Below, in pieces: positions 3,277-32,290 of a stretch of 37,217 nucleotides of DNA. The stretch lies in the IMG/VR virus record IMGVR_UViG_3300017754_003015, positions 1 to 37,217 of that record; one strand, 5' to 3'. The stretch is from a virus (Duplodnaviria > Caudoviricetes). Below the pieces are notes generated by a model, which saw only the letters and a list, made by a program, of their open reading frames with translations, was not told the origin of the DNA and searched no databases. A program made the position numbers and the translations under genes. The stretch's first letter is position 1. Each line of letters opens with the position of its first letter.

Positions 3277-4127
3277 TGTATTTATTACAAGAAGATCCTA
3301 GATCAGTACAAGGGACGCCCGAATGGAGGGCGTTCCGCAAGTTACACATTACAGCAACAGACAGTGGAGTTATAGTTGGAGCCTCACCATGGAAGACACC
3401 AAAACAGTTATATGACGAAAAAGTGTGCAATGTTGACTTCCCATCTGATACTAACTGGCGTATGCAACGAGGAATTGATTTAGAGCCCATTGCTCGCGCT
3501 TATTATGAAAAGAAAGTAAATACACAGTTTACCCCTAAAATAGCTGTAAAAGAGTGGGCTATGGCTTCCTTGGACGGGGTTAGTGATAGTGGTGAAATTG
3601 TAGAGATAAAGTGTCCGGGTAATTTGGCACATAATTTGGCATTATCCGGCCAAGTACCAGATTATTATTACCCTCAATTGCAACACCAAATGTATGTTTG
3701 TGATGTTGATAAGGTAGATTATTTTAGTTTTGATGGTAACGATGGAGTTATCGTTCAGGTTGTCAGAAATGATGAATATATCAAAAATATGATAGAAAAG
3801 GAGTTACAATTTTACATGTGTTTACAAAATAAGACGCCACCATTTGAAGAAGAAAAATATGTAGATAGACAAGATCCTATATGGCAAGCATTAGCTAACA
3901 AGTGGAAGAATATAAAAAGAAAAAAGAAAGAAATTGAAGATGAGGAAGAAGCTATTAGACAAGAGTTACTCAAAGAAAGTGGTGAGTTAAACACAAAGGG
4001 ATTTGGTTTATCTTTCGCAAACGTTGTAAGAAGAGGCAACGTCGACTACTCCCAAATCCCGGAACTAATGGGAGTAAATCTGGAACAATACAGGAAGCCT
4101 CAAAGCAGCTCTTGGCGTATATCGTAA
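3276..4127 (+). CDS. YqaJ / lambda-exonuclease family recombination nuclease
   Basis: QGTPEWRAFR..ITAT, G..LEP.AR, ASLDG, EIKCP, YYPQLQHQM motifs. Confidence 0.92.
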   Translation: MYLLQEDPRSVQGTPEWRAFRKLHITATDSGVIVGASPWKTPKQLYDEKVCNVDFPSDTNWRMQRGIDLEPIARAYYEKKVNTQFTPKIAVKEWAMASLDGVSDSGEIVEIKCPGNLAHNLALSGQVPDYYYPQLQHQMYVCDVDKVDYFSFDGNDGVIVQVVRNDEYIKNMIEKELQFYMCLQNKTPPFEEEKYVDRQDPIWQALANKWKNIKRKKKEIEDEEEAIRQELLKESGELNTKGFGLSFANVVRRGNVDYSQIPELMGVNLEQYRKPQSSSWRIS

Positions 4128-6746: not shown

Positions 6747-8924
6747 TTAGGTCTGTCTAAAAATAACATAATCAAAGCTTGATACGTCCGTTACAGCTGC
6801 TGCACCTAAATCTGTGTAAGAAGCTACTGTAAATGAAACACCAGCGTTAATTGTTGTTATTAATGATCCAAGAGCTGGGCTTGCGTTAAGAGCTGAACGT
6901 GTAACTATAATACGGTCACCAGCTGCAATATTTGTGTTATTAATAGTTACAGTTCCTGCAATCAAAGTTCCTTGACCAATAAAATCAGTTGCAGCGCCAC
7001 CATTCATATAGATTTGAGTAGCTACACTAGATAATTTTAAGTTTCCTGTAATATTTACTGCACCTGATCCGGCTAGAATATTTGTTGTGGATGTAGTGTT
7101 GCTAGATCCGATAGACACTGTTTGAGCGCCTGCACCTGTACCAATTTTGATAATATTTGCAGAAGTGGCAGAATCACCTGCAATATTGATAGTTTTAATA
7201 CCAGTATTGTTAGCGATGTTGATGGTTCTAGCTCCTGTTCCACCGTCAAATGTCATTGTACCCGTATTCACCCCTGTTCCTGAGAAGGAATAAGTAGTGG
7301 CTACGTCACCCTCTAAAGTGAAGTTACCAGTACCGGCTTTTAGAGCAAGTGAAGATGCTCCGTTATTAGAACCAATAGAAACAAGATTTGCTCCGGCTCC
7401 TGTGGCAATGGCTACAGTTTTACCACCAGTTGAGTTTGCGATATTGATAGTTTGAGCGCCTGTTCCTCCAGCAATAGTCATTGTGCCAGTGTTAGCACCA
7501 GTACCACCAAAATTGATGATTCCTGATGTTGTGGCAGGTGCAAAAGTGTAGGCTGTAGTTGCTGCACCATCTAAACTAAAGTTTCCTGTACCAGCTTTAA
7601 GAGTTAGAGCTGCTGCCCCAATAGTAGAACCGATTGTCACTAGGTTTGCGACCGCTCCATCGGCAATATGAACCACTTTAGCGTTAGTTGCGCCTGTTGC
7701 TATATTAATTGTGGTTGCCCCTTCACCAACTCCTAAAGCAAGGATATTTGTTCCAGAGCTAGATCCGACTGTGATGGTTCCTGTTTGGGCTGTACCACCG
7801 ACTGTGATTGTACCTGTTGTCATGCCAGTTCCAACGTTAACAGCTCCAGCAGTTTGAACGGCAGCAATAGATACGGTGGTTGCCCCTGTTCCTCCAGCAA
7901 TGATAAGAGCGTTTGTGCCAGAAGAAGAACCGAGAGTCATTGTACCTGTTTGAGCTGTACCCCCAATAGTGATTGTCCCTGTAGTTGTAGCGGCTCCTAC
8001 TGTATAGGTTGAAGCTGCGTTACCATTTAAAGAAAAGTTACCTGTCCCCACAAGAAGAGAAAGAGAAGCTGCACCTGATACCGTTCCTATAGTCACTAAG
8101 TTTTCCACTGCACCATTGGCGATATTAACCGCCTTGGCATTAGTTGCACCGCTAGCAATGTTAACAGTTGTTGCTCCCTCGCCTGCTCCAATTTCCACAA
8201 TATTCGTACCAGAAGAAGAACCTAGAGTAATTGTTCCTGTCTGAGCTGTTCCCCCAATTATAACCGTTCCTGTGGTAGTGGCAGCACCTATATTATAAAG
8301 AGAAGTAGCTGCACCGTTAACGACAAAGTTACCAGTACCCACATTGATTGCGACTGCCGCCGCTCCACCTGTATTTCCGATTGTGGTTACAATACCGCTT
8401 CCGTTACCGATTGTAGTAGTGTTATTAGATGTTAAAGTAGTAAATGCACCGGCAGCAGGTGTTGTTCCTCCTGTAGCTGGAGGAGCTGCAAAAACAGCTG
8501 CTAAGTTGGAAGGAGTTACAAATAAAGCTAGAGCAGGTGTAGAGGCTGTTCCTGCTACTGCTTCTGGATCTGTTGCTAATTGTCCAATACCTGCAACTGT
8601 TGTTGTTGAAACTGGAGCACCTGCAATGGCTAGAGCATCTGCATAAGCTTTTGTAGCTACTGGCTCACTATTATCTGTTAGAATTACTGTTCCATATGTT
8701 GTTGTTGTAGCAGGCTCTACGCCACCTACATCCCAGTTACCAGCTCCGCTTGTAGAGTAAATAATACCCGGATTAACAGAACCGTCCATCCATCTTGTGC
8801 CTGGATTAGCAATATCATTAGTTGTTGGCGCTCTGAGAGCTGTTATAAATTGTGGATAAACAAAGGCGTCGACCCCAGTCGCAAAAGGCGTTCCTTGGGC
8901 TAGATTGGTATAAGCTTGAGTCAT
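6747..8924 (-). CDS. Long tail fibre / beta-solenoid repeat protein
   Basis: 725 aa, Gly/Thr/Ala-rich; four GTGNF-initiated super-repeats built of ~11-residue units (GGTAQTGTIT, GSSSGTN). Confidence 0.8.
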   Translation of the reverse strand: MTQAYTNLAQGTPFATGVDAFVYPQFITALRAPTTNDIANPGTRWMDGSVNPGIIYSTSGAGNWDVGGVEPATTTTYGTVILTDNSEPVATKAYADALAIAGAPVSTTTVAGIGQLATDPEAVAGTASTPALALFVTPSNLAAVFAAPPATGGTTPAAGAFTTLTSNNTTTIGNGSGIVTTIGNTGGAAAVAINVGTGNFVVNGAATSLYNIGAATTTGTVIIGGTAQTGTITLGSSSGTNIVEIGAGEGATTVNIASGATNAKAVNIANGAVENLVTIGTVSGAASLSLLVGTGNFSLNGNAASTYTVGAATTTGTITIGGTAQTGTMTLGSSSGTNALIIAGGTGATTVSIAAVQTAGAVNVGTGMTTGTITVGGTAQTGTITVGSSSGTNILALGVGEGATTINIATGATNAKVVHIADGAVANLVTIGSTIGAAALTLKAGTGNFSLDGAATTAYTFAPATTSGIINFGGTGANTGTMTIAGGTGAQTINIANSTGGKTVAIATGAGANLVSIGSNNGASSLALKAGTGNFTLEGDVATTYSFSGTGVNTGTMTFDGGTGARTINIANNTGIKTINIAGDSATSANIIKIGTGAGAQTVSIGSSNTTSTTNILAGSGAVNITGNLKLSSVATQIYMNGGAATDFIGQGTLIAGTVTINNTNIAAGDRIIVTRSALNASPALGSLITTINAGVSFTVASYTDLGAAAVTDVSSFDYVIFRQT

Positions 8925-8964: not shown

Positions 8965-9005
8965 ACGGTGGCGAATCCCGTTACAGCCACAGAGTGCGAC
9001 CCTGT
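8965..9005 (-). ncRNA. Structured 5' leader: hairpin-UGGCUGUA-hairpin
   Basis: Minus-strand ACAGGG-UCGCA-CUCUGU, linker GGCUGUA, ACGG-GAUUCGCCA-CCGU; same layout upstream of the capsid gene. Confidence 0.6.
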
Positions 9006-9084
9006 TGTTTACGCTAAATTGAGATTACCAATTAAAGATTTTAGTTGCTATAAAAATAAAGTAATTTTTCGTATTTATAGAGAA

Positions 9085-9127: not shown

Positions 9128-9370
9128 ATGGAAAATTTACATGAATATACAGCAATCATAACAATTATCGGGGTCTTTATTGCTAATGCTGCTTTAATAC
9201 TTCCTTTATGGTTATGGAATAGATCAGAGTCTAGGGCTGATGTAAGGAATATTGATTCTAAAATAGAGTCAAATAGACAAGAAACAAATGCTATTTTACA
9301 AGCCATTCGTGACGATATCAAAGATTTCCATGGAAGATTGTGTGCTATAGAGGAAAGGAATAGAAAATGA
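9128..9370 (+). CDS. Membrane-anchored coiled-coil protein, KDFHGRLC paralogue 1
   Basis: N-terminal hydrophobic helix, WNRSESRAD, C-terminal KDFHGRLCAIEE; GAGG RBS. Confidence 0.85.
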   Translation: MENLHEYTAIITIIGVFIANAALILPLWLWNRSESRADVRNIDSKIESNRQETNAILQAIRDDIKDFHGRLCAIEERNRK

Positions 9371-10312: not shown

Positions 10313-10500
10313 AAATATTTTTACTTTGTCTTTTATTTATTTCTTCTTTTTGTTGGTATATGTACACAGAAAATTTACATTCTGTAAATAAATCATTTAG
10401 AGATAGCGCTGATTTTTGGAGAAGAGAATGTAAGAAATTAGAAAAAATTAACTCATCCTCTGGTATTGATAACCACCATTCTTTATCAAAGCTGCCATAG
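10309..10500 (+). CDS. Small membrane-anchored protein
   Basis: Start MKIFLLCLLFISSFCWY overlaps the DUF29 stop (ATGA). Confidence 0.5.
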   Translation: MKIFLLCLLFISSFCWYMYTENLHSVNKSFRDSADFWRRECKKLEKINSSSGIDNHHSLSKLP

Positions 10501-11005
10501 CAGCTCCATGAGAGGGAGTGGAACCTTTTTTCCAAGTGTGCCAGGCGTTCGAGCCAGACGTTTTCGGCCCGACGGCTCCTCTACTAAACACGTTGAATAT
10601 AAAGTCAGGCACTCCCTCATAACGGTACACTGGCCCATTCTGTTGCGGGTATTTACCTTGGAACTTAACAAATAACCTTTGACTTTCTGGGTCATAACGA
10701 AATGCGTTTATATTACTCGAATCGTGAGGAGCTGGCTGTAATGGTGGTATATTACCGCCTGTTGGTGGCGCTCCTCCTCCACCTTCACCCTGTGTGGTTA
10801 CTTGTTCCGATACTTGAGCTTGCTCTTGTTCTATGGCGTTTATATTGCCTTCTTCTGCTCTTAACTCTGTAATTCTTTTAGTAACGTGTTGAATTACTTG
10901 CATTAGTCCAGATTTTATCTCATCACTCAATGGTTGATTACGTATGGAAACCATCTTCATAATTTCCCTGAGAGCATTCTTAAGCTGTTCTATTTTATCA
11001 TTCAT
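10448..11005 (-). CDS. KTSC-domain protein with N-terminal helical region
   Basis: SSNINAFRYDPESQRLFVKF...VYRYEGVP..IF matches the KTSC pattern. Confidence 0.75.
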   Translation of the reverse strand: MNDKIEQLKNALREIMKMVSIRNQPLSDEIKSGLMQVIQHVTKRITELRAEEGNINAIEQEQAQVSEQVTTQGEGGGGAPPTGGNIPPLQPAPHDSSNINAFRYDPESQRLFVKFQGKYPQQNGPVYRYEGVPDFIFNVFSRGAVGPKTSGSNAWHTWKKGSTPSHGAAMAALIKNGGYQYQRMS

Positions 11006-18583: not shown

Positions 18584-18967
18584 CTAGTTATTAATGTTGT
18601 TTAGGCTCTGAAAAGGAACTTGCCGTGATGTATTGTTAAATTCCAAATTTCTAGATCCAGCAGGTGATAAGCTTGCTGGTGTTACACTTGTAGCTGAGCC
18701 ATCTACAAATGCGTCGAAATAATTAGAATCAATGTCTAATTGCATAGTTGTTGAATCTACAGCCAGTATCTGTCCTACCAATCCATTAGCTTGATACATG
18801 CCCCATGTTCTAGGAACTGTTAACCGTACTAGCTGGTTTACTTTATAGGTATTTGAGCCAGTGGAGGGAACGGTAAACGTAACTATCATGGGATAGGAGC
18901 GCGTTATACCCGTAATAAGTAACATGCTCGGTATCTGTATTGTGCCTTTAAGGTATTGGTTAGGCAT
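18584..18967 (-). CDS. Virion protein with one FCCH-like beta-barrel
   Basis: ITGITRSYPMIVT...VRLTVPRTWGMYQANGL...LDIDS aligns with the second repeat of 19225..20226. Confidence 0.65.
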   Translation of the reverse strand: MPNQYLKGTIQIPSMLLITGITRSYPMIVTFTVPSTGSNTYKVNQLVRLTVPRTWGMYQANGLVGQILAVDSTTMQLDIDSNYFDAFVDGSATSVTPASLSPAGSRNLEFNNTSRQVPFQSLNNINN

Positions 18968-18972
18968 AATTA

Positions 18973-19161
18973 CTATTTTAATCTAATAATTTTAGGTAGA
19001 TTTTTATGTCCTTTTTCAGGTTTACCCTTATTTCTAGACATTTGCTTCATCGACTGTTCCCCTTGTTTTAGCTTTTTCAAATCTTTTTTTGTGGGTTTAT
19101 CCATCACATAACCATGAACTCTTATTGTTCCAGGTTCTAACTTCTTTTTTTCTTTTTTCAT
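18973..19161 (-). CDS. Small Lys-rich basic protein
   Basis: 62 aa; AAGGA RBS. Confidence 0.6.
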   Translation of the reverse strand: MKKEKKKLEPGTIRVHGYVMDKPTKKDLKKLKQGEQSMKQMSRNKGKPEKGHKNLPKIIRLK

Positions 19162-19172
19162 ATTTATCCTTT

Positions 19173-19209
19173 AAAAGAGACCATATTCCCAGTGTCGGCA
19201 ATATGGTCT
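19173..19209 (-). terminator. Terminator/attenuator after the capsid and decoration genes
   Basis: AGACCATATT (19178-19187) / AATATGGTCT (19200-19209) perfect 10-bp stem, then CUUUU on the minus strand. Confidence 0.65.
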
Positions 19210-19224
19210 ACAAGTTACTTACGA

Positions 19225-20226
19225 TCAGTTCTCTAGCTTATATGCTAACCAATTTATAATATCGCTAGCCGCGCCTGCCGGAGCTTGGGCACCACCCCCG
19301 AGATACATATATGGAGTGAATTCACCGCTTCTAAAACTTTGGTATTGAAAGTTATACCCAGTTTGAACACCTGTAACAGGGTCATATTGAGTAGAAGCAC
19401 CAGCTGGAGCCAATGTAGCAAATAAAGCAGCTGTTGGAGATGCTGTAGATGCTGGGAAAGCAAAAGTATTGAATGCTGAAGAATTAATATCTACAGTCAT
19501 TGTATAATTTGCTGCTGACATAGCTACAATTGTTCCTGTTAGCTGATCCATTTGGTACATTCCAAAAGAATAAGGAACACTAAAATGAATCTTCATACCC
19601 ACAACATAATATTGAGTTGGATCAACTGATGTTCTAACAACTGCCTGAGTTGCTTTTGTAATCTCAGTGATATACAAGAACTGTGGATCTACAGCTGCGT
19701 ATTTTGAAATACGTCTTGTGTAACCAGCAGTTGCCGCAGCTGCAAACCCTGCCGCACGTAGACCGATTAGAGTGTAATCGTTAGCGTTAACAGTAGATAT
19801 TTGAAAGCTCATACCAGCAATTTGTAACATGCCAGTTGTGCTATACAATTGGAGAATGTCTCCAGCTGAATAACCGTGACCTGTTTGAGATACAACCGCT
19901 GGGCTAGCTGCTGTAATAGCTGTAATAGCTGCTGCATTCTGAGCCTCTACAACGGGAGCAACGTTTACATAAGTAAAGCCACCGCTTGAATAGGTGCTTG
20001 TTAAATCAGAAGTTGTTTTAACTGTTTTAATACCACCGCCAGCAGCAGATGCTCCTGCTCCAAACTTGGAACCAAACCACTTACTTTTGGTAACTGTGTT
20101 TGGGTTGGTAGCCGCTATCTGTGTCATATTATACACTTCCATGTAATCCGCAGAAGATGGAATAGGTATCTTAATACCTGCACCTGTAGAGGTGAAGGAA
20201 TCGCCTGTAATAATAGTAAAAGCCAT
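19225..20226 (-). CDS. Head decoration-like protein with two FCCH-like domains
   Basis: ITAITAASPAVVSQTGHGYSAGD...GMLQIAG and ITEITKATQAVV...GMYQMDQ repeats; directly after the capsid gene. Confidence 0.7.
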   Translation of the reverse strand: MAFTIITGDSFTSTGAGIKIPIPSSADYMEVYNMTQIAATNPNTVTKSKWFGSKFGAGASAAGGGIKTVKTTSDLTSTYSSGGFTYVNVAPVVEAQNAAAITAITAASPAVVSQTGHGYSAGDILQLYSTTGMLQIAGMSFQISTVNANDYTLIGLRAAGFAAAATAGYTRRISKYAAVDPQFLYITEITKATQAVVRTSVDPTQYYVVGMKIHFSVPYSFGMYQMDQLTGTIVAMSAANYTMTVDINSSAFNTFAFPASTASPTAALFATLAPAGASTQYDPVTGVQTGYNFQYQSFRSGEFTPYMYLGGGAQAPAGAASDIINWLAYKLEN

Positions 20227-20239
20227 ATACTAGCCTCCC

Positions 20240-21202
20240 TTATGAAGGTAGATAAGTGGTCACGTTAAGACCGCTAATCCAGTTCTGATTAGTAATCGCG
20301 CGAGCGATAGCGAATTTCGCATACAATTGGCTGTTTTGAGCCACAGAAGATACAACCCACGGTGGACGGTAACCAATGACAGCTGTGTAATTGTTTTGTT
20401 CAATTTTGGCAGCTGCTTCTAGTCCGTACATTGGTATTGTATAAACTGTATTACCTCTCATAGAGATACCAGGAATTTTTGCTCCTTTAGAGGAAACAAA
20501 GAAACGGAATCGGCTAATAGAGCAATACTCTTCTGGACGCAATCCTTCTTGTGTTGGGTAAGCAGATTTAAGCAATACACCTTGTACTTTCTGTAAGTCA
20601 GAAGATAAGTTAGTGTTTGCTAACGCAATGAATGCATCTCTAACACCAGCTGTACCGATTTCACGTGTAGCTTCTAGATTAGTTAGCATTGAACGAGCGT
20701 CGTTACCAAGTAGAATGTTTTCTACGTTGTTAACGTCGTTAAGAGATAGGTTAGATGGCTGATCACCATTCAAACCGCCTGTTGCGTTGATATAGGAAAC
20801 ACTAGAAGCAAACAAGTCTCTCATCAAGAGATCTTCTTTCTCACGTAACCACTGTCCTAGCAATGCTGTGAACTTGGTTAGAGTCTTGCTATTCTCATAC
20901 AATATTACCTGTTCATTGGTCACGATAGACTTGGCGTATATCTCCATAGTCGCATCGATATCTGTACGAACTGGCACTTCAGAAGCAGGGTCAATACCTG
21001 AGCCATCAAGCTGTCCACCATCTGTTGATAGACGCTCAAAACGGCTCATACGTGTTGTTTTACCGACATAACTTTCGGCATGGTGAAGATCAACTCCAAT
21101 GGAGTGGATCAAGTTGAACATAGGTGTTGACAATAGGTCTTCTGCTGCCTGTAAAGGAAGCTCAGGAGACATATTGTTGATATTGGTAATACCAGTAGCC
21201 AT
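20240..21202 (-). CDS. Major capsid protein (N4-gp56-like, HK97 fold)
   Basis: 320 aa after the scaffold; GKTTRMSRFERL, EGLRPEEYCSISRFRFFVSS, AITNQNWI patterns. Confidence 0.8.
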   Translation of the reverse strand: MATGITNINNMSPELPLQAAEDLLSTPMFNLIHSIGVDLHHAESYVGKTTRMSRFERLSTDGGQLDGSGIDPASEVPVRTDIDATMEIYAKSIVTNEQVILYENSKTLTKFTALLGQWLREKEDLLMRDLFASSVSYINATGGLNGDQPSNLSLNDVNNVENILLGNDARSMLTNLEATREIGTAGVRDAFIALANTNLSSDLQKVQGVLLKSAYPTQEGLRPEEYCSISRFRFFVSSKGAKIPGISMRGNTVYTIPMYGLEAAAKIEQNNYTAVIGYRPPWVVSSVAQNSQLYAKFAIARAITNQNWISGLNVTTYLPS

Positions 21203-21229
21203 TATAGCCTCGCGTGGTAAGGTGTTTCC

Positions 21230-21303
21230 TTGAGTGACGAACTCAAAAAATCAGTCTTACGCGGGCGAGGCGTATGTACAGCCATGAGACTAGCGGATGT
21301 CTC
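21230..21303 (-). ncRNA. Structured 5' leader of the capsid gene (three hairpins)
   Basis: GAGAC-AUCCGCUA-GUCUC, linker AUGGCUGUACA, UACGC-CUCGCCC-GCGUA, UUGAGU-UCGUC-ACUCAA. Confidence 0.65.
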
Positions 21304-21338
21304 TAGATATACACGCTATATGTAATGTATCAAGTTAA

Positions 21339-21494
21339 TTATTTATTATCAATTTCTTCTGGGATAAATCTGTCTAAAAAAGAAGCAATAACACCCAAAT
21401 AATACATTGCGCGTTTTATATCATCATCTTCCCCTATGTATCTAGCTATATCTGTTACCCTAGTTCTAACATATTCAATATCTTTTATTTTCAT
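21339..21494 (-). CDS. Hypothetical 51-aa protein
   Basis: Start MKIKDIEY overlaps the scaffold stop (TGATG). Confidence 0.5.
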   Translation of the reverse strand: MKIKDIEYVRTRVTDIARYIGEDDDIKRAMYYLGVIASFLDRFIPEEIDNK

Positions 21495-22261
21495 CAACTT
21501 AACCCCTTGAGGCTTTTTTGCATTCGGCTCCAATTCTCTGCCCTTCTCTCTGCTGTTAACCTTGCACTACTTACACTTTCACCGCTTGGTGTCATGGTAG
21601 AGCCAGACATAGACTTTGGTTTATTTTGATTAATTTCAGCCCTTTGAGCTTCTTTTTTTGCTGTTGTTGAGTTTGGAACAAATTTCTTAATAGCGTGATA
21701 AACATCTGACCATGTATCGAATCCCTCACCTAACCTTTTTAATGGCCTTACTATCTCTGGGTAATGGTATTCAAGATAATCAAAGTTTTCATCTGTTACT
21801 ATCTTTTCAAAATCGGGGTATGTTTGGTTTAACCGTTGGGGATATTCCCTTTGTTCCTTTTCTCTTCTTTCTTTTTCAATAGCTGCTTCACGTGCTGCTA
21901 ATGCAGCATTCACTTTCTTCTCTATTCGTTGCTCTTCTGTCTCTTCATACTGAAATGCACTATTATCTACTAAATTAGTAGATCCTCCTAGGTAATTATT
22001 GGGCTGCTTACTAAACGCCGCTTCCATTGCAGCTCTTAAAGCGGCTGCCTCAGCTTCTTTCTCTTCTGCTCTTTTTTCAGCTAATCTCTTTTCCTCTCTG
22101 GTTTTTTTCATTTGCTCACGGTAAGCTTTCCAGTTTGGGTTTTCTGGTTGCGCTTCTTCTTGTTGAATCAAACTTGCATCAACTTTTTGTTGATCCGTAT
22201 TTGTGTCAACTTTTTCTTGAATTACTTCAATTTGTGGTATATTTTCAGGTGTATTATTCAC
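21494..22261 (-). CDS. Capsid scaffolding protein
   Basis: Acidic N-terminus, long coiled coil, YPDFEKIV motif; upstream of the capsid gene; GTG start with AAGGGG RBS. Confidence 0.75.
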   Translation of the reverse strand: MNNTPENIPQIEVIQEKVDTNTDQQKVDASLIQQEEAQPENPNWKAYREQMKKTREEKRLAEKRAEEKEAEAAALRAAMEAAFSKQPNNYLGGSTNLVDNSAFQYEETEEQRIEKKVNAALAAREAAIEKERREKEQREYPQRLNQTYPDFEKIVTDENFDYLEYHYPEIVRPLKRLGEGFDTWSDVYHAIKKFVPNSTTAKKEAQRAEINQNKPKSMSGSTMTPSGESVSSARLTAERRAENWSRMQKSLKGLS

Positions 22262-22273
22262 GGAGACCCCTTT

Positions 22274-22567
22274 ATGGTTGATAATTTAGACGAAATGAAA
22301 TTGGAACATGATTTAAAAATGCAACAAGTGAAAGAAGAGGTGTTAAGAAAGTTAACAGAATATAGAAAAACAATGTCATATTTATATGCGGACGCTCCCA
22401 TTACTGTGCTTTGTCTTCCTCCTGTTATACAAAAATCACTACTCGACCATGGCTGCTTGCGTGTCTACGACCTCTTTGATCTCGATTTTACTAAAGTCAA
22501 AGGACTCGGCGATTCTCGTATCAGGCAACTTACATCCTGCCTTGATCAGTTCCTCTCTATGCTTTGA
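22274..22567 (+). CDS. RNA polymerase alpha-CTD-like (HhH) protein, antisense to the late operon
   Basis: GGAG RBS at 22262; PITVLCLPPVIQKSLLDHGCLRVYDL...FTKVKGLGDSRIRQLTSCL follows the alpha-CTD helix/HhH pattern. Confidence 0.65.
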   Translation: MVDNLDEMKLEHDLKMQQVKEEVLRKLTEYRKTMSYLYADAPITVLCLPPVIQKSLLDHGCLRVYDLFDLDFTKVKGLGDSRIRQLTSCLDQFLSML

Positions 22568-23050
22568 TATGTATTCTCTCTCGGATAGCATGTCTATGTT
22601 TTGATCGTGTCTTATGTAATCCCAGAATGTGCCGTTATGAAATGCGATACTCCACGCTTGCATAGTCTCATATTCTTTGGGGACTACAGGCTTCTCACAT
22701 AGCTCAGCCATTGTGAATGCGTTAGGCAACACCCATAAGCGCTTAGTTATCTTGTCTAGTGGCTTGTTATAAAGGAACACAGCTTGATTTGGTCGTGGGG
22801 ATGGTAAGTATGGCCAAGCGTAATACTTTATACGCTTTAATCCATGAATGAGGTTGTCTGTAGCGATTATACGAACAATACAAAACTCATCTTCCATGAT
22901 GATATTCTTGTGTTTCTCTATGCAGTCACGTAATTGCTTATCTATGTCATGGCACATAGCTTCACCCACTTCACGTGCTAAATACTTTGTGTTGTCTTGC
23001 CTAGCTTTCTTAGCTAATACGCTAGCTGCAATGGGATGTTTAGTTATCAA
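22439..23050 (-). CDS. Hypothetical phage protein in the head module
   Basis: 203 aa; GGAG RBS; YLPSPRPNQAVFLYNK...LWVLP motif. Confidence 0.75.
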   Translation of the reverse strand: MITKHPIAASVLAKKARQDNTKYLAREVGEAMCHDIDKQLRDCIEKHKNIIMEDEFCIVRIIATDNLIHGLKRIKYYAWPYLPSPRPNQAVFLYNKPLDKITKRLWVLPNAFTMAELCEKPVVPKEYETMQAWSIAFHNGTFWDYIRHDQNIDMLSEREYISKHREELIKAGCKLPDTRIAESFDFSKIEIKEVVDTQAAMVE

Positions 23051-23062
23051 CTTTATCTCTCC

Positions 23063-23275
23063 TTACCCTATTTGTATATTTAAATTTCTCCAAAGTAATT
23101 TAATTCCTACCATTCCAGATTTGTTTATATTATCCACTGATTTATCTAGATTTTTACTATCTTCAGAACCATAAAAAACTTTTTTTACTGTTTGCGGTTC
23201 GTCTTTTTTCATTATCTCGATAATGGTATTCCATTTCGGGAGAGTTTCACTACTAAACTGTATCCATTCATTCAT
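23063..23275 (-). CDS. Hypothetical protein (DUF551-like N-terminus)
   Basis: MNEWIQFSSETLP start. Confidence 0.5.
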   Translation of the reverse strand: MNEWIQFSSETLPKWNTIIEIMKKDEPQTVKKVFYGSEDSKNLDKSVDNINKSGMVGIKLLWRNLNIQIG

Positions 23276-23296
23276 TCTGACTCATATTTCCTTTTT

Positions 23297-23494
23297 TCAA
23301 TGATCACACTCTTTTTCATAACATTTTTGTATTAATAATGAGTCTAATTCTTTTTTAACTCTATAAATCCCATCCATACACTTAAATTCTATAAGATCAT
23401 CAAAAATACCTACTTCAATTATTTCAGAAGGTAACTCAAAACAACCAAAGCTACTATTGAACCTTTTACCCATAGTTAATATTTTCTCACTCAA
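23297..23494 (-). CDS. Hypothetical protein
   Basis: 65 aa; start overlaps the upstream stop. Confidence 0.5.
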   Translation of the reverse strand: MSEKILTMGKRFNSSFGCFELPSEIIEVGIFDDLIEFKCMDGIYRVKKELDSLLIQKCYEKECDH

Positions 23495-23703
23495 TGGTCA
23501 CACTCGTTAGTTTTAACATGTGTACATGGTCTTTTACGTGGCCCCATTGGGTTAAATGCGTCACGTGGATTAGGAGCGCCATCTGGTGTTAGATTCATGT
23601 TAATCTCCCACTGCTCATTAGGTACAGCTCTACCGCTACCGTGTTTGATAACGTCTGCTGTCCTGTTCTTTAGGTAATCAGGTGCATGGTGTACTTTTTT
23701 CAT
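23491..23703 (-). CDS. Hypothetical protein
   Basis: 70 aa; AGGA RBS. Confidence 0.65.
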   Translation of the reverse strand: MKKVHHAPDYLKNRTADVIKHGSGRAVPNEQWEINMNLTPDGAPNPRDAFNPMGPRKRPCTHVKTNECDH

Positions 23704-23720
23704 ATATATCCTAAATTAAA

Positions 23721-23774
23721 GGGTTAGACCATCCGCCTGACTTTCGTCATTTACGTCAATTCGCAACCTAACCC
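23721..23774 (-). ncRNA. Stem-enclosed multi-motif RNA element
   Basis: GGGUUAG/CUAACCC stem extendable by G-U pairs on the minus strand; encloses GCGAA, ACGUA, ACGAA, GCGGA and a UGAC-GAAA-GUCA tetraloop hairpin. Confidence 0.55.
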
Positions 23775-23780
23775 GTATTT

Positions 23781-23978
23781 TTAATGTTTTGCTTTATGTG
23801 AACTAACATATTTATTTAGTTTAGTCACACCTTCTTTAAGATGCTCTGGATTGCTCATCTCTCCGGATGTGTATTTAACATCTGACATACCTGGTTCACC
23901 TGGTTTATGCTCCCAGTGTCCTTCGTTAAACTGTGGCATTGCTGCCTTTGTTGCATGTGCTTCTTTACTGTGTGCCAT
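23781..23978 (-). CDS. Small His/Lys-rich protein
   Basis: 65 aa; AAGGAG RBS. Confidence 0.7.
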   Translation of the reverse strand: MAHSKEAHATKAAMPQFNEGHWEHKPGEPGMSDVKYTSGEMSNPEHLKEGVTKLNKYVSSHKAKH

Positions 23979-24016
23979 ACTTTACTCCTTAGCCTATTTG
24001 GCTTTATTTAATAAAA

Positions 24017-24325
24017 TTAATCGTCAAAATGATGCTCAAATCTAATTCCTGTCATTCCTTTTTTACGAGATTTAGGCAATTTTTTATGAAGTTCTCTCGC
24101 TTTTTTATCTACACTTTTTTTAGCTTCTTCATTTTTAATAGAACCCTTCTCTACTCCAATTCTATTTTTAATAACTTCTTTTTTTAAATGTCCAGACAAA
24201 CGATTGGATCTTTTAGCGGATGCTTTAGGATCAACTCTATGCCCCTTAGATGTAGCTTCACTTATTGCTTTATCTTTTCCTATTTCTTTAGCTCTTTTTC
24301 TAACTGGTTTTGCTGTTGATGCCAT
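24017..24325 (-). CDS. Basic Lys/Arg-rich protein
   Basis: 102 aa; AAGGA RBS; has its own promoter motif upstream. Confidence 0.7.
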   Translation of the reverse strand: MASTAKPVRKRAKEIGKDKAISEATSKGHRVDPKASAKRSNRLSGHLKKEVIKNRIGVEKGSIKNEEAKKSVDKKARELHKKLPKSRKKGMTGIRFEHHFDD

Positions 24326-24352
24326 AAAAAATCCTTTTCTTTAATTGTCTAA

Positions 24353-24382
24353 TGTAACATTAGTTACAATTATGACATATGT
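24353..24382 (-). promoter_or_regulatory. Third copy of the shared promoter motif plus a palindrome
   Basis: Minus-strand ACATATGTCATAATT (24368-24382); adjacent TGTAAC-ATTA-GTTACA (24353-24368). Confidence 0.55.
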
Positions 24383-24400
24383 TAACTTATTAAACAATAA

Positions 24401-26443
24401 TCATCCTGCCATTGCAGGTATTTTATTTAACATTTCTTCTTCCCTATCCATCTTATTAGCCTGCTTAATAGCTTGAGCGTGCTCAAAAGATGAACGGAAC
24501 TGATTGAATTGCAAGTCCTCTAACTCAACCATCATTTTGACAAGATCAAGATCAGATTTCATGTTCTTGTGCTCTGCTCCAGCTTGCAGATCGTCTGCTT
24601 TTGCTTGTGTTTCCTGTATCTTAGCCATATTCAACTTGGATTTAGCAAACAGATCCATAATCTTCGCGTTATCTATTTTTTCTTGTTGCTGAGCTTGCTG
24701 TTGCGCTTGTTGCTGCTGTCCTTGCATCTGTTCTTCCATATCTGCAATAACTTGTCGTTTATTGGTAATGAAAGCAGCCCTGATAATTGACTTATCAGAA
24801 ATCTGGATTCCGAGTTCTTTAAAGTGTAGGAGTTGCTGAAGTTCTGTTTGACGTTGCGTAGTGGAATAGTTACCTTCCTCCACTGCAACAGCATATTTTT
24901 GTGAGTGAGAAGTAAAGAAACGTGGATCTGCATCATGACCCAATATGTTTTTAATCTTACCCTTACTGAAGTTTTTACGAATGGCTTGAAGCCTGATTTT
25001 TCCATATAATCTTTGGGAATAATCAAGTTTGTCAAATATGGTCTGTAAGGTGGTGAGACCAGCTCCCTGCCGTAGCATAGATAATATCCCAGATTTATCA
25101 TCTGTCGCTGATCCCAAAAGCTCTTCATTAACACCTGATATTTTAGTAATATCTTCTGCTAAACTGTTTGATAATTCAAGTAAAGATTGAGGAATAGATA
25201 CTGGCTCTATCCTTTGTATCTCGTTGGGTAAGTGGCCTGCCTTTAATGGAATTAAGAAGCCATCCCCACCACTTGTCTGTCTAAATGCTTTAGTATCTGT
25301 TACCACATCAACAGGATATATCCAACCAGCGTTTAAAGATGACTGAAGTAACTGAAGCTCAATGACTTTTCTTAAATTGTATAAAAATTGAGAATCAATT
25401 AGCCCAGCCACTATGCCCTGTTTACGCCAAGCATATGACACAACATCTTGGTCTACATATGTTTGACAAGGCACAAAAGGGTATGCGTCTATCCCAAGTA
25501 AATTTTTACCATGATATACAATATGATCACCTAGCTTAATCACAAGCTTAGTTGTGGGTATTTGTACATTCTGTACTTTAAGCCAAGGTTGCTGTCTCAT
25601 GACTTGATCTAGCATGTCATCGTCTTCTGTCTCATCCTCATTCCATTCAGTCGTTTCACCCGTCATTGGGTCTAGGATGATTTTACCGGGTCTTGAGGTG
25701 GCGTAATAGAATTCGTCATAGGAAAACAGTTTGTTTGTAGCTACGTTTTGTAACTCAGCTTGCATGGGAAAGCGACCATCTTTCATGCCACCTGAACGCA
25801 TCTTATCTATTTCTTTGGCATACCCTGGGATAAGCGTCTTAGCCATTTCTTTAGACACCCAACGTCTACGCCATATCCCGTTACAGTCAGATAAATCTTG
25901 CTTGCGTGTGTAGGAATCAATTAGATAATTATTATAACTTACAGCGTCAGTAAATAAGTCACCTGAGATAGGATCGAAAGTATAATCAGGGTATATATGT
26001 AATAGCGTCTCTCCTGTGTCAACTGCACCCTCAAATGCTTGGGATAGATATTCCTGGAAGCCGTCTCTATCATCGCACCAACGCATCACTTTGTTATAGT
26101 CATCGGCTACTTGGTCATCCTGCTCCCCTACAGGAATAGTGATAGTGGATTTCCGGTTTTTACGCTGAAACCCACATATCATATTAACGTGACGGCAAAT
26201 CAAGTTAAAGAAGAACTTTTGTGCATTTTGGTAATTACTACCATAGAATTGGGACTGTAGTTGCTGATCGCCTACTTTGAAACGCTTTGCTATAGCTCCC
26301 CGTAACCAGTAGGTAGAGTTAATTGGATAATTCGTTAAATAGAAATTATCCATCATTTGTTTCAGGTTCTTGTTATCTCTGTCTGATGGGTCGACAAAGC
26401 CACTCATGGAAGTGTTGTAATTTCCGGATTCATATGAGCCCAT
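24401..26443 (-). CDS. Portal protein (P22-like)
   Basis: 680 aa; FNLICRHVNMICGFQRKNR, YPFVP, GIVAGLIDSQFLYN, ISGVNEELLG...SG, Gln-rich C-terminal barrel. Confidence 0.9.
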   Translation of the reverse strand: MGSYESGNYNTSMSGFVDPSDRDNKNLKQMMDNFYLTNYPINSTYWLRGAIAKRFKVGDQQLQSQFYGSNYQNAQKFFFNLICRHVNMICGFQRKNRKSTITIPVGEQDDQVADDYNKVMRWCDDRDGFQEYLSQAFEGAVDTGETLLHIYPDYTFDPISGDLFTDAVSYNNYLIDSYTRKQDLSDCNGIWRRRWVSKEMAKTLIPGYAKEIDKMRSGGMKDGRFPMQAELQNVATNKLFSYDEFYYATSRPGKIILDPMTGETTEWNEDETEDDDMLDQVMRQQPWLKVQNVQIPTTKLVIKLGDHIVYHGKNLLGIDAYPFVPCQTYVDQDVVSYAWRKQGIVAGLIDSQFLYNLRKVIELQLLQSSLNAGWIYPVDVVTDTKAFRQTSGGDGFLIPLKAGHLPNEIQRIEPVSIPQSLLELSNSLAEDITKISGVNEELLGSATDDKSGILSMLRQGAGLTTLQTIFDKLDYSQRLYGKIRLQAIRKNFSKGKIKNILGHDADPRFFTSHSQKYAVAVEEGNYSTTQRQTELQQLLHFKELGIQISDKSIIRAAFITNKRQVIADMEEQMQGQQQQAQQQAQQQEKIDNAKIMDLFAKSKLNMAKIQETQAKADDLQAGAEHKNMKSDLDLVKMMVELEDLQFNQFRSSFEHAQAIKQANKMDREEEMLNKIPAMAG

Positions 26444-26548: not shown

Positions 26549-26761
26549 ATGGAAAATTTAAATGAGTTCACCTCGATCATCACAATTTTAGGCGTTTTCA
26601 TTGCTAATGGCACATTAATAATACCTTTATGGTTATGGAATAGATCAGAATCACGTGCGGATAACAGAGAAATTATTGCTCTCATAAATGCAATTCAAAC
26701 AGAAATGAAAGATTTTCATGGTAGACTGTGTTCTATAGAAGAAAGAAATAAAAAACAATAA
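26549..26761 (+). CDS. Membrane-anchored coiled-coil protein, KDFHGRLC paralogue 2
   Basis: Very similar to 9128..9370; AGGAG RBS; upstream TGgTAAAAT extended -10. Confidence 0.85.
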   Translation: MENLNEFTSIITILGVFIANGTLIIPLWLWNRSESRADNREIIALINAIQTEMKDFHGRLCSIEERNKKQ

Positions 26762-29524: not shown

Positions 29525-29540
29525 TACACTGACGCGTGTA
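29525..29540 (-). promoter_or_regulatory. Leader hairpin upstream of terS
   Basis: Minus-strand UACAC-GCGUCA-GUGUA; loop related to the capsid and fibre leader loops. Confidence 0.4.
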
Positions 29541-29586: not shown

Positions 29587-29757
29587 ATGTGGTTAATTTT
29601 ATTAGTTGTTACATGCATGTTGTATTGCAGCTGCCATTACATCAATACAAGAATAGGCTTAGAGGATGATAATGTAATTGAAGAAGTTGTTGAGGTTGTA
29701 ATAGAAAAAGAGACTGGGTTAGATATAGACCTAACCCCAGAATCTATTGAGAAATAA
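29587..29757 (+). CDS. 56-aa putative lipoprotein (not in ORF track)
   Basis: MWLILLVVTCMLYCSC then acidic DDNVIEEVVEVVIEKETGLDIDLTP; GAGGGG RBS. Confidence 0.7.
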   Translation: MWLILLVVTCMLYCSCHYINTRIGLEDDNVIEEVVEVVIEKETGLDIDLTPESIEK

Positions 29758-31359: not shown

Positions 31360-31608
31360 TTATGATGACTCCAAGTTATGTAATTTTATATCGCCAGATG
31401 AGCCGGATTCTATATATTTTTGAAAATACTCTTCATTTTTTTTCATTCTAAAAATAAAACACTCTTTCTCTGGATCTGGTAAATTGTCAAAATTAAACAT
31501 TCTGTGAGCGTCTATCATATGATTAGCCAATAACCTGCATACGGTACGAGGATCTTGAGTTAAGAAATATTCTGTAAGAGAATCAATGACTTGTTTGTTT
31601 GTTTTCAT
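31360..31608 (-). CDS. Hypothetical protein
   Basis: 82 aa; ATGA-coupled. Confidence 0.65.
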   Translation of the reverse strand: MKTNKQVIDSLTEYFLTQDPRTVCRLLANHMIDAHRMFNFDNLPDPEKECFIFRMKKNEEYFQKYIESGSSGDIKLHNLESS

Positions 31609-31820
31609 TTCTTCCTAGACTCCTCAATTTTACATAATCTTCCATGAAAATCTTTAGATTCTTGTAGAATAGCTAAATGAAAAGCTTTCATTTCCTCTCT
31701 AATTGCCGCTACTTGATTATCCATATGTCGCCAATCATTTCTTGATTCAGTTCTAAACCAAATAATTAAACCAGCATTTGCAGCGAATAAAGATAATATT
31801 TGGATCCAAGTTTCATTCAT
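31605..31820 (-). CDS. Membrane-anchored coiled-coil protein, KDFHGRLC paralogue 3
   Basis: ANAGLIIWFRTESRND...KDFHGRLCKIEE. Confidence 0.85.
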   Translation of the reverse strand: MNETWIQILSLFAANAGLIIWFRTESRNDWRHMDNQVAAIREEMKAFHLAILQESKDFHGRLCKIEESRKK

Positions 31821-32029
31821 TGTTTTCTTCCTTCTTTAAGAAGATCATAAAACATATTATATGTAGCGTCTATTCTTGCATTAGCTGCATCCATTCTTGC
31901 GTTAGTTGCTGATATGTTCGACATGTTATTTAAACAAATAGAAAGAAGGATGGCTGCTATTGCTATGTTAACACCGATAATAGCCACTGTATCCGCATGA
32001 TTTTTCAAAAAACTTATTTTAGTATCCAT
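31817..32029 (-). CDS. Single-TM coiled-coil protein
   Basis: VAIIGVNIAIAAILLSICL then NARMDAANARID...FYDLLKE; GAGG RBS. Confidence 0.8.
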   Translation of the reverse strand: MDTKISFLKNHADTVAIIGVNIAIAAILLSICLNNMSNISATNARMDAANARIDATYNMFYDLLKEGRKQ

Positions 32030-32228: not shown

Positions 32229-32290
32229 TATAAAAAGCTAAGTTAAATCCTTAAATTTGCTAAGTTAGGGGTTTAACTTAGCTTTTTATA
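32229..32290. repeat. Long inverted repeat (19 bp perfect, 26 bp with G-U pairs)
   Basis: TATAAAAAGCTAAGTTAAA...TTTAACTTAGCTTTTTATA. Confidence 0.85.

Follow-up and report, generated by a model that had tools for sequence, protein, structure and literature searches.

Tandem, covarying predicted pseudoknots in the capsid and fibre leaders of a phage group, with a probable role in translation control

In a phage and its relatives, a large family of uncultured phages, the leaders of the major capsid and presumptive fibre genes carry an RNA module, about 27 nt long, that is uncatalogued and covaries strongly. The module occurs in tandem and is predicted to fold as a pseudoknot. It likely controls translation, and a phage protein is a candidate for its ligand. 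In the near relatives, part of one unit is predicted to pair alternatively with the Shine–Dalgarno (SD) sequence of the capsid gene, so that the leader would be closed by default.

Results

Genome and genes

The window analyzed here is the whole 37,217-base virus record. It encodes a portal, a terminase, a lambda O-like replication protein, a RecE-like nuclease and a serine invertase, together with three genes that bear on the module:

20240–21202, minus strand: major capsid protein, 320 aa; close relatives are named N4-gp56 family by JGI
21494–22261, minus strand: predicted scaffolding protein and candidate ligand; its own leader in this phage is without the module
6747–8924, minus strand: 725-aa Gly/Ala/Thr-rich protein, here called fibre

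The fibre label comes from a preliminary description of the sequence and fits the composition; the protein has no PHROG or Pfam match, and its assignment is presumptive. As to the host, one homolog carries the taxon label Chlamydiales, metagenome-assembled genomes with capsid matches are labeled Paceibacterota, Bacteroidetes, Nitrososphaeraceae and Legionellaceae, and a host search gave 1 of 41 genomes of one order.

Several other features of the genome were observed in passing. Similar small proteins with a hydrophobic start are dispersed over it (9128–9370 and 26549–26761, plus strand; 31605–31820 and 31817–32029, minus strand) and have 486 homologs, nearly all unnamed. Where the tail region ends, 10448–11005 (minus strand) encodes a KTSC-domain protein that is present in 15 of 15 near relatives and in few distant ones. 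A long, near-perfect intergenic inverted repeat lies at 32229–32290, ∼0.9 kb upstream of the serine invertase gene.

A covarying module, predicted to be a pseudoknot

The preliminary description had singled out six hairpins with related loops in late-gene leaders. All six exist on the minus (sense) strand with the loops that it gave, at 21286–21303, 21258–21274 and 21230–21246 in the capsid leader, 8989–9005 and 8965–8981 in the fibre leader, and 29525–29540 in the terS leader. A contig from a second run spans 21219–21364 with 0 differences from the window. As literally described, a perfect stem of at least five pairs with CGY in the loop is barely above chance: a genome-wide scan found 22 matches on the minus and 19 on the plus strand, against 12.4 ± 3.9 (maximum 25) in 30 shuffles. 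The comparison with shuffled sequence that the description had suggested thus goes against hairpin and loop taken alone, but favors the hairpin with a complementary strand upstream, for which 7 minus-strand matches stand against 1.2 ± 1.0. Those seven are four capsid and fibre units and three matches, at two places, inside coding sequence; fibre unit 1 is absent from them because its stem holds a G-U pair. A looser pseudoknot descriptor returned 706 clusters and was useless.

A unit consists of a hairpin with a YCGYY loop, the C-GYY of which is complementary to an RRC-(N)-G strand just upstream. In the leaders of 80 related capsid genes, the RRC strand is often followed by one bulged base and then G. 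On this complementarity, each unit is predicted to form a pseudoknot. The units of the window are as follows:

21286–21317, minus strand: capsid leader unit 1; the loop of hairpin 21286–21303 has CGCT, the pairing partner of AGCG at the predicted +1
21258–21283, minus strand: capsid leader unit 2, the switch unit; the loop of hairpin 21258–21274 has C-GCC, the pairing partner of GGC-U-G
21230–21256, minus strand: capsid leader unit 3; the loop of hairpin 21230–21246 has C-GUC, the pairing partner of GAC-U-G
8989–9015, minus strand: fibre leader unit 1
8965–8988, minus strand: fibre leader unit 2

To follow the pairs we used 166 leaders (the window, 84 capsid and 80 fibre), 146 after removal of redundancy. 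These contain 225 CGY-loop hairpins, 180 of them with an upstream RRC(N)G located without demanding complementarity; the other 45 were set aside. Ignoring kinship, the middle pair of the 180 units is G:C in 125, A:T in 47 and mismatched in 8, and the first pair is G:C in 98, A:T in 35, A.A in 33 and something else in 14. A MAFFT alignment was then made of 74 capsid leaders, namely the window and 73 of the 76 chosen by sequence landmarks from 141 loci. Its two pseudoknot helices are paired in 98.6% and 98.5% of cases and show 22 and 25 G-C to A-U double changes. Covariation scores 0.50; shuffles give 0.19, with 0 of 500 reaching the observed value, and sliding gives no more than 0.14. Since leaders were selected for the G:C pair that follows the bulge, its constancy in this alignment is not evidence. 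Across the pair states, every pair position of the pseudoknot varies, the C:G pair included, and one two-unit class is a variant with AGAG/CUCU in slot 2. On a quick, weakly supported capsid tree, one state requires 17 changes, at least 3 of them forced across strongly supported branches.

Two crossing helices with compensatory changes point to a cis-acting RNA pseudoknot. The G-U pairs in the helices and the strict restriction of the module to the sense strand indicate that the element is RNA and not DNA, and we consider the RNA module almost certainly real. The preliminary description had further proposed a free code of loops in a cis-regulatory RNA of structural genes. The loops covary with a strand a few bases upstream, however; they therefore pair in cis, and a protein would read the folded module. 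What survives of the proposal is a conserved cis element in capsid and fibre leaders, but not in the terS leader, whose hairpin has no partner strand and is unconserved among 32 terS leaders; the module precedes 0 of 25 terS genes.

The preliminary description did not recognize the motif as a described one, and Rfam 15 covariance models gave 0 matches at E ≤ 10 on 21180–21360. On the whole window, Rfam gave only two chance miRNA matches, elsewhere, and on five distant loci one sub-threshold match, away from the leader. No description of the motif was found in the literature searched, a body that includes few subscription journals.

Placement and range

In the window, the first unit of each leader directly follows a predicted promoter:

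21324–21352, minus strand: capsid promoter, sigma70-type (TTGATA, 17 nt, TACATT, extended TG), predicted +1 at 21317
9022–9050, minus strand: predicted fibre promoter, read from sequence (TAGCAA, 17 nt, TAATCT), predicted +1 at 9015

In 48 of 68 leaders, the distance from the end of a TAnnnT hexamer to unit 1 is exactly 6 nt, and the next most frequent offset is seen in 9; 29 of the 48 have TTG 16–18 nt further upstream. Unit 1 therefore starts at the predicted +1 (21317).

A strict scan for tandem clusters on both strands of 41 phage genomes (3.16 Mb) found 30; capsid genes follow 16 of them and fibre genes 9, and the other 5 lie elsewhere. Shuffles gave 4, 1 and 4. Capsid or fibre genes are thus preceded by 25 of the 30 clusters. 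Single units stand before fibre genes in 11 of 16 genomes of the window's (near) clade and 0 of 24 in the far clades, and before the portal gene in 1 of 41. The scaffold gene is preceded by a unit in 1 of 16 near-clade genomes (a chance-like figure), 0 of 5 of clade farA, 10 of 14 of clade farB, and 4 of 6 of a clade with abutting scaffold and capsid genes, where the capsid gene has no leader of its own and 0 of 6 are preceded by the module. In the last two, distant clades, the module ends 7–19 nt upstream of the start codon of the scaffold gene, next to the SD or overlapping it. The single-unit capsid counts (11/16, 4/5 and 4/14) are below what inspection by eye shows, probably owing to variant units, introns and misplaced starts.

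Intron-like inserts were observed in the capsid genes of L164 (about 3300–3590), L279, L280, L287, L301–L309 and several of G070–G095; from their core motifs we take these to resemble group I introns.

Where capsid identity is 62–87%, the module is kept in as many as four copies, with new states of the pairs; where it is 32–40%, leaders have two to six copies. The first unit in clade farB is a circular permutation, in which the CGY strand precedes and the loop contains its partner. A scan that did not demand complementarity found this form in 11 of 12 farB leaders, and 11 of 11 are complementary (C:G in 8, T:A in 2, G:C in 1). We infer that what is conserved is a three-dimensional shape, not a loop word. 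Searching the viral collection for the exact slot-2 pattern gave 37 matches: 17 capsid leaders, 5 fibre leaders and 15 unrelated GC-rich contigs, the last read as chance. Two distant-capsid alignments were too divergent for scanning; no locus was found for P0170, and by eye no obvious module precedes the capsid gene of MW202713, at 26% identity.

A predicted two-state switch at the SD

Two strands of the capsid leader make up the predicted OFF helix:

21256–21271, minus strand: anti-SD strand, made up of the loop and 3′ arm of unit 2; its pairing with the SD arm and unit 2 exclude each other
21207–21221, minus strand: SD-containing arm of the OFF helix, with GAGG at 21208–21211

Among near relatives, the loop of unit 2 can pair with either the upstream strand or the SD, and the leader is therefore a two-state switch in prediction. 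Nested folding puts the probability that the SD 4-mer is unpaired below 0.3 in 67 of 69 near-clade capsid leaders, with its partners in the slot-2 loop region; in predicted folding, the near clade thus has the layout of an ON switch, an SD-sequestering helix that excludes unit 2. The OFF duplex covaries: it averages −12.5 kcal/mol for cognate partners vs. −8.6 kcal/mol for noncognate ones, the best of 10,000 permutations reaching −9.7, although the cognate partner ranks first in only 8 of 76 leaders and within the best tenth in 33.

In the window's capsid leader, the OFF fold has −44.7 kcal/mol vs. −33.8 kcal/mol with hairpin 2 forced, pseudoknot pairs being unscored. The model thus predicts the SD-blocked state as the default, and places the ON state 10.9 kcal/mol uphill before pseudoknot pairs, which is much for one ligand. 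Among fibre leaders, the SD is buried in 20 of 21 that bear the motif vs. 18 of 40 that do not. Of the 21, 17 have it paired with unit 2, but the fibre leader of the window does not. In distant capsid leaders other than those of farB, the SD pairs with the 3′ side of the last unit in 6 of 13, and in farB capsid leaders SD and module are coupled in 0 of 11, the SD being free or in a local hairpin. We judge it quite probable that the module acts on translation initiation.

Discussion

A head-assembly protein as possible ligand

How would such a leader be opened? From a promoter of host type, capsid transcripts would be made as long as there is a genome to transcribe. Since the capsid promoter is of host type and the leader is by prediction OFF by default, a trigger would be needed. 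The 2–6 tandem copies suggest a multivalent protein ligand that gains from avidity. We propose that a protein of phage head assembly, with free scaffolding protein the likeliest candidate, binds the tandem modules and pulls the anti-SD strand from the blocking helix, which would free the capsid SD and likely turn translation on. The case for this proposal as a whole seems to us evenly balanced, and so does the narrower claim that the ligand is a phage protein; that it is the scaffold itself we put forward only tentatively. The direction of the switch, to ON, is likewise a proposal.

In two distant clades, the position of the module next to the scaffold SD suggests the opposite sign: stabilizing the module there would likely block ribosomes. 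In the scaffold leaders of G090, G093 and G095, the 3′ arm of the module contains or overlaps the SD. The same binding would then repress scaffold while activating capsid, a balancing circuit. Free scaffold, as the signal that capsid protein is short, would fit such a double action on capsid and scaffold.

The product of 21494–22261 is predicted to be a scaffold from its helical predicted model and from a Foldseek match (E 5.6e-4) to an entry named scaffolding protein; its nearest named Atlas cluster, PF09306, is on 13% of members and serves as a lead only. Several observations run against the scaffold as reader. Its own leader is without the module in the window's clade and in farA, and SD and module are uncoupled in 11 of 11 capsid leaders of farB. 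No regulator gene that tracks the module specifically was found among the genomes compared, and no RNA-binding activator by name among the window's ORFs. An alternative candidate ligand is the product of the adjoining core gene at 22439–23050 (minus strand), which has 894 homologs. Its predicted model is confident (pLDDT 85) and gave no Foldseek match at E ≤ 0.001 and a best VIA Z of 3.4, with no clear fold match.

A tiny hairpin covers the SD, in place of the module, at 22262–22275 (minus strand) and in many near-clade scaffold leaders.

In its fullest form, the proposal makes the circularly permutable pseudoknot a sensor of free scaffold, with capsid and fibre ON and scaffold OFF, through which procapsid stoichiometry and late timing would be set, no late sigma factor and no antiterminator being needed. 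This we regard as speculative, and somewhat less probable than the scaffold being the ligand.

Other readings of the module

The main rival is a translation enhancer read by the host, in which the pseudoknots would be a standby site for S1 or the 30S subunit, the SD helix being invaded from there. One polarity would then cover near, farA and farB capsid leaders alike, including the farB SD in its independent local hairpin, and the absence of a phage gene tracking the module would be expected. There are precedents: the 5′ pseudoknot of tisB is needed for S1 and 30S binding (PMC7708055) and that of timP to free the SD (PMC13000454), so that in both an SD-sequestered mRNA needs a 5′ pseudoknot to be translated, as predicted here. 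Those knots are single ones in toxin mRNAs under antisense control, neither tandem nor permuted as here. What makes standby unlikely is that unit 2 and the OFF helix are mutually exclusive, that the 3′ arm of the module contains or overlaps the SD in the three scaffold leaders named above, and that a strong host-type promoter joined to a constitutive enhancer would give no late timing.

Somewhat less probable is a device of RNA only, in which the pseudoknots form first during transcription, opening a window for translation and shielding the 5′ end, and then relax to the SD-blocked fold. It would suit the position of unit 1 at the predicted +1 (48/68) and the contrast between a local ON fold and a long-range, more stable OFF fold. 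It leaves unexplained the 2–6 near-identical internal copies, the circular permutation and the single modules at scaffold SDs. Against it, too, capsid protein is needed in bulk.

A tandem ON-type riboswitch for a host metabolite or ion would share the layout of aptamer and expression platform, and the bulged base with the near-constant G:C pair could make a pocket. This we consider improbable: all pseudoknot pair positions vary, including C:G, there are few invariant unpaired bases, Rfam has no match, and the module was found only before virion genes.

Antitermination signals such as put and nut might be expected where the module lies, directly after promoters that head long gene runs. That reading is more improbable still, as the capsid leader has no terminator-like site (the only one on the minus strand in 18900–24500 is at 24405–24418) and the covarying SD pairing points to translation.

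Reading of the loops in trans by the 23.72-kb element, as the preliminary description had considered, is barely credible, for although that element holds short complements of the loops, these already covary with cis partners, and the element is sporadic (1 contig of the viral collection, unrelated inserts occupying its slot in other relatives) whereas the leader module is near-universal.

The 23.72-kb element itself (23721–23774, minus strand) is small and structured, with an inner hairpin, and looks like a separate, sporadic RNA that is not part of the module. It has no Rfam match. Among the loci listed of the 52 holding the flanking gene, it is in one relative, L025, and in the one contig of the whole viral collection where it recurs the inner hairpin changes compensatorily. 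L390 was grouped with L025 for this element. The intergenic slot (23704–23780) holds inserts that appear tRNA-like in L003, L018, L042, L064 and L077, and unrelated hairpins in other phages. A hairpin at 29714–29740 (minus strand) has an outer stem sequence in common with the element.

Relation to known control systems

It is useful to compare the module with operators that proteins read. CsrA/RsmA operators present GGA in hairpin loops to a CsrA-like reader; the loops here are YCGYY, and no CsrA-named match occurs among the 53 ORFs of the window. Wyckoff and Casjens, as cited in PMC2115188, are said to have described, in 1985, autoregulation of the P22 scaffolding protein. In a later report, the N-terminus of that protein is "implicated in translational autoregulation" (10.1101/2022.12.13.520362). 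P22 is similar in its podovirus-type head module, and two distant clades have the element at the scaffold's own translation start (10/14 and 4/6). The window's scaffold leader is without it (1/16 in its clade, 0/5 in farA), and in the literature searched we found no report of capsid activation by scaffold.

The T4 gene 32 operator is likewise a pseudoknot in a phage leader that controls translation via a phage protein, described as one knot with an unstructured A+U tract, acting in repression on the gene of a protein that binds single-stranded DNA (PMC3014915). The present module, unlike it, comprises 2–6 tandem bulged knots with a competing SD helix; its clusters precede capsid and fibre genes, and the ribosome-binding site is structured. 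In the Mu Com–mom system, a phage protein binds an mRNA target and activates translation (PMC6483171); the likeness lies in the activation proposed here, and the difference in a target that is a repeated pseudoknot. No Com-like protein was found among the 53 window ORFs scanned. The module resembles protein-read translational operators such as those of T4 gene 32 and Mu Com, without their defining features.

Finally, DNAVirus_3698 and DNAVirus_865 are structured RNAs by prediction, lying no more than 25 nt from capsid_maj_N4 genes in 37 and 4 cases (PMC10690425). Both show just 2 covarying bases, and the passages compared here mention neither a pseudoknot nor a switch. Overlap with our module is possible.

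Significance

An uncatalogued RNA module of this size has thus been kept across phages whose capsid proteins share only 32–40% identity, and it occurs in natural circular permutants. A small, portable ON switch of this kind would be a useful synthetic part. The module also provides an RNA target, exact and cheap, on which to ask if mRNA is read by a scaffolding protein, a form of control noted for P22. More broadly, it offers a possible answer to how phages with a host-type capsid promoter may time and balance the synthesis of their heads.
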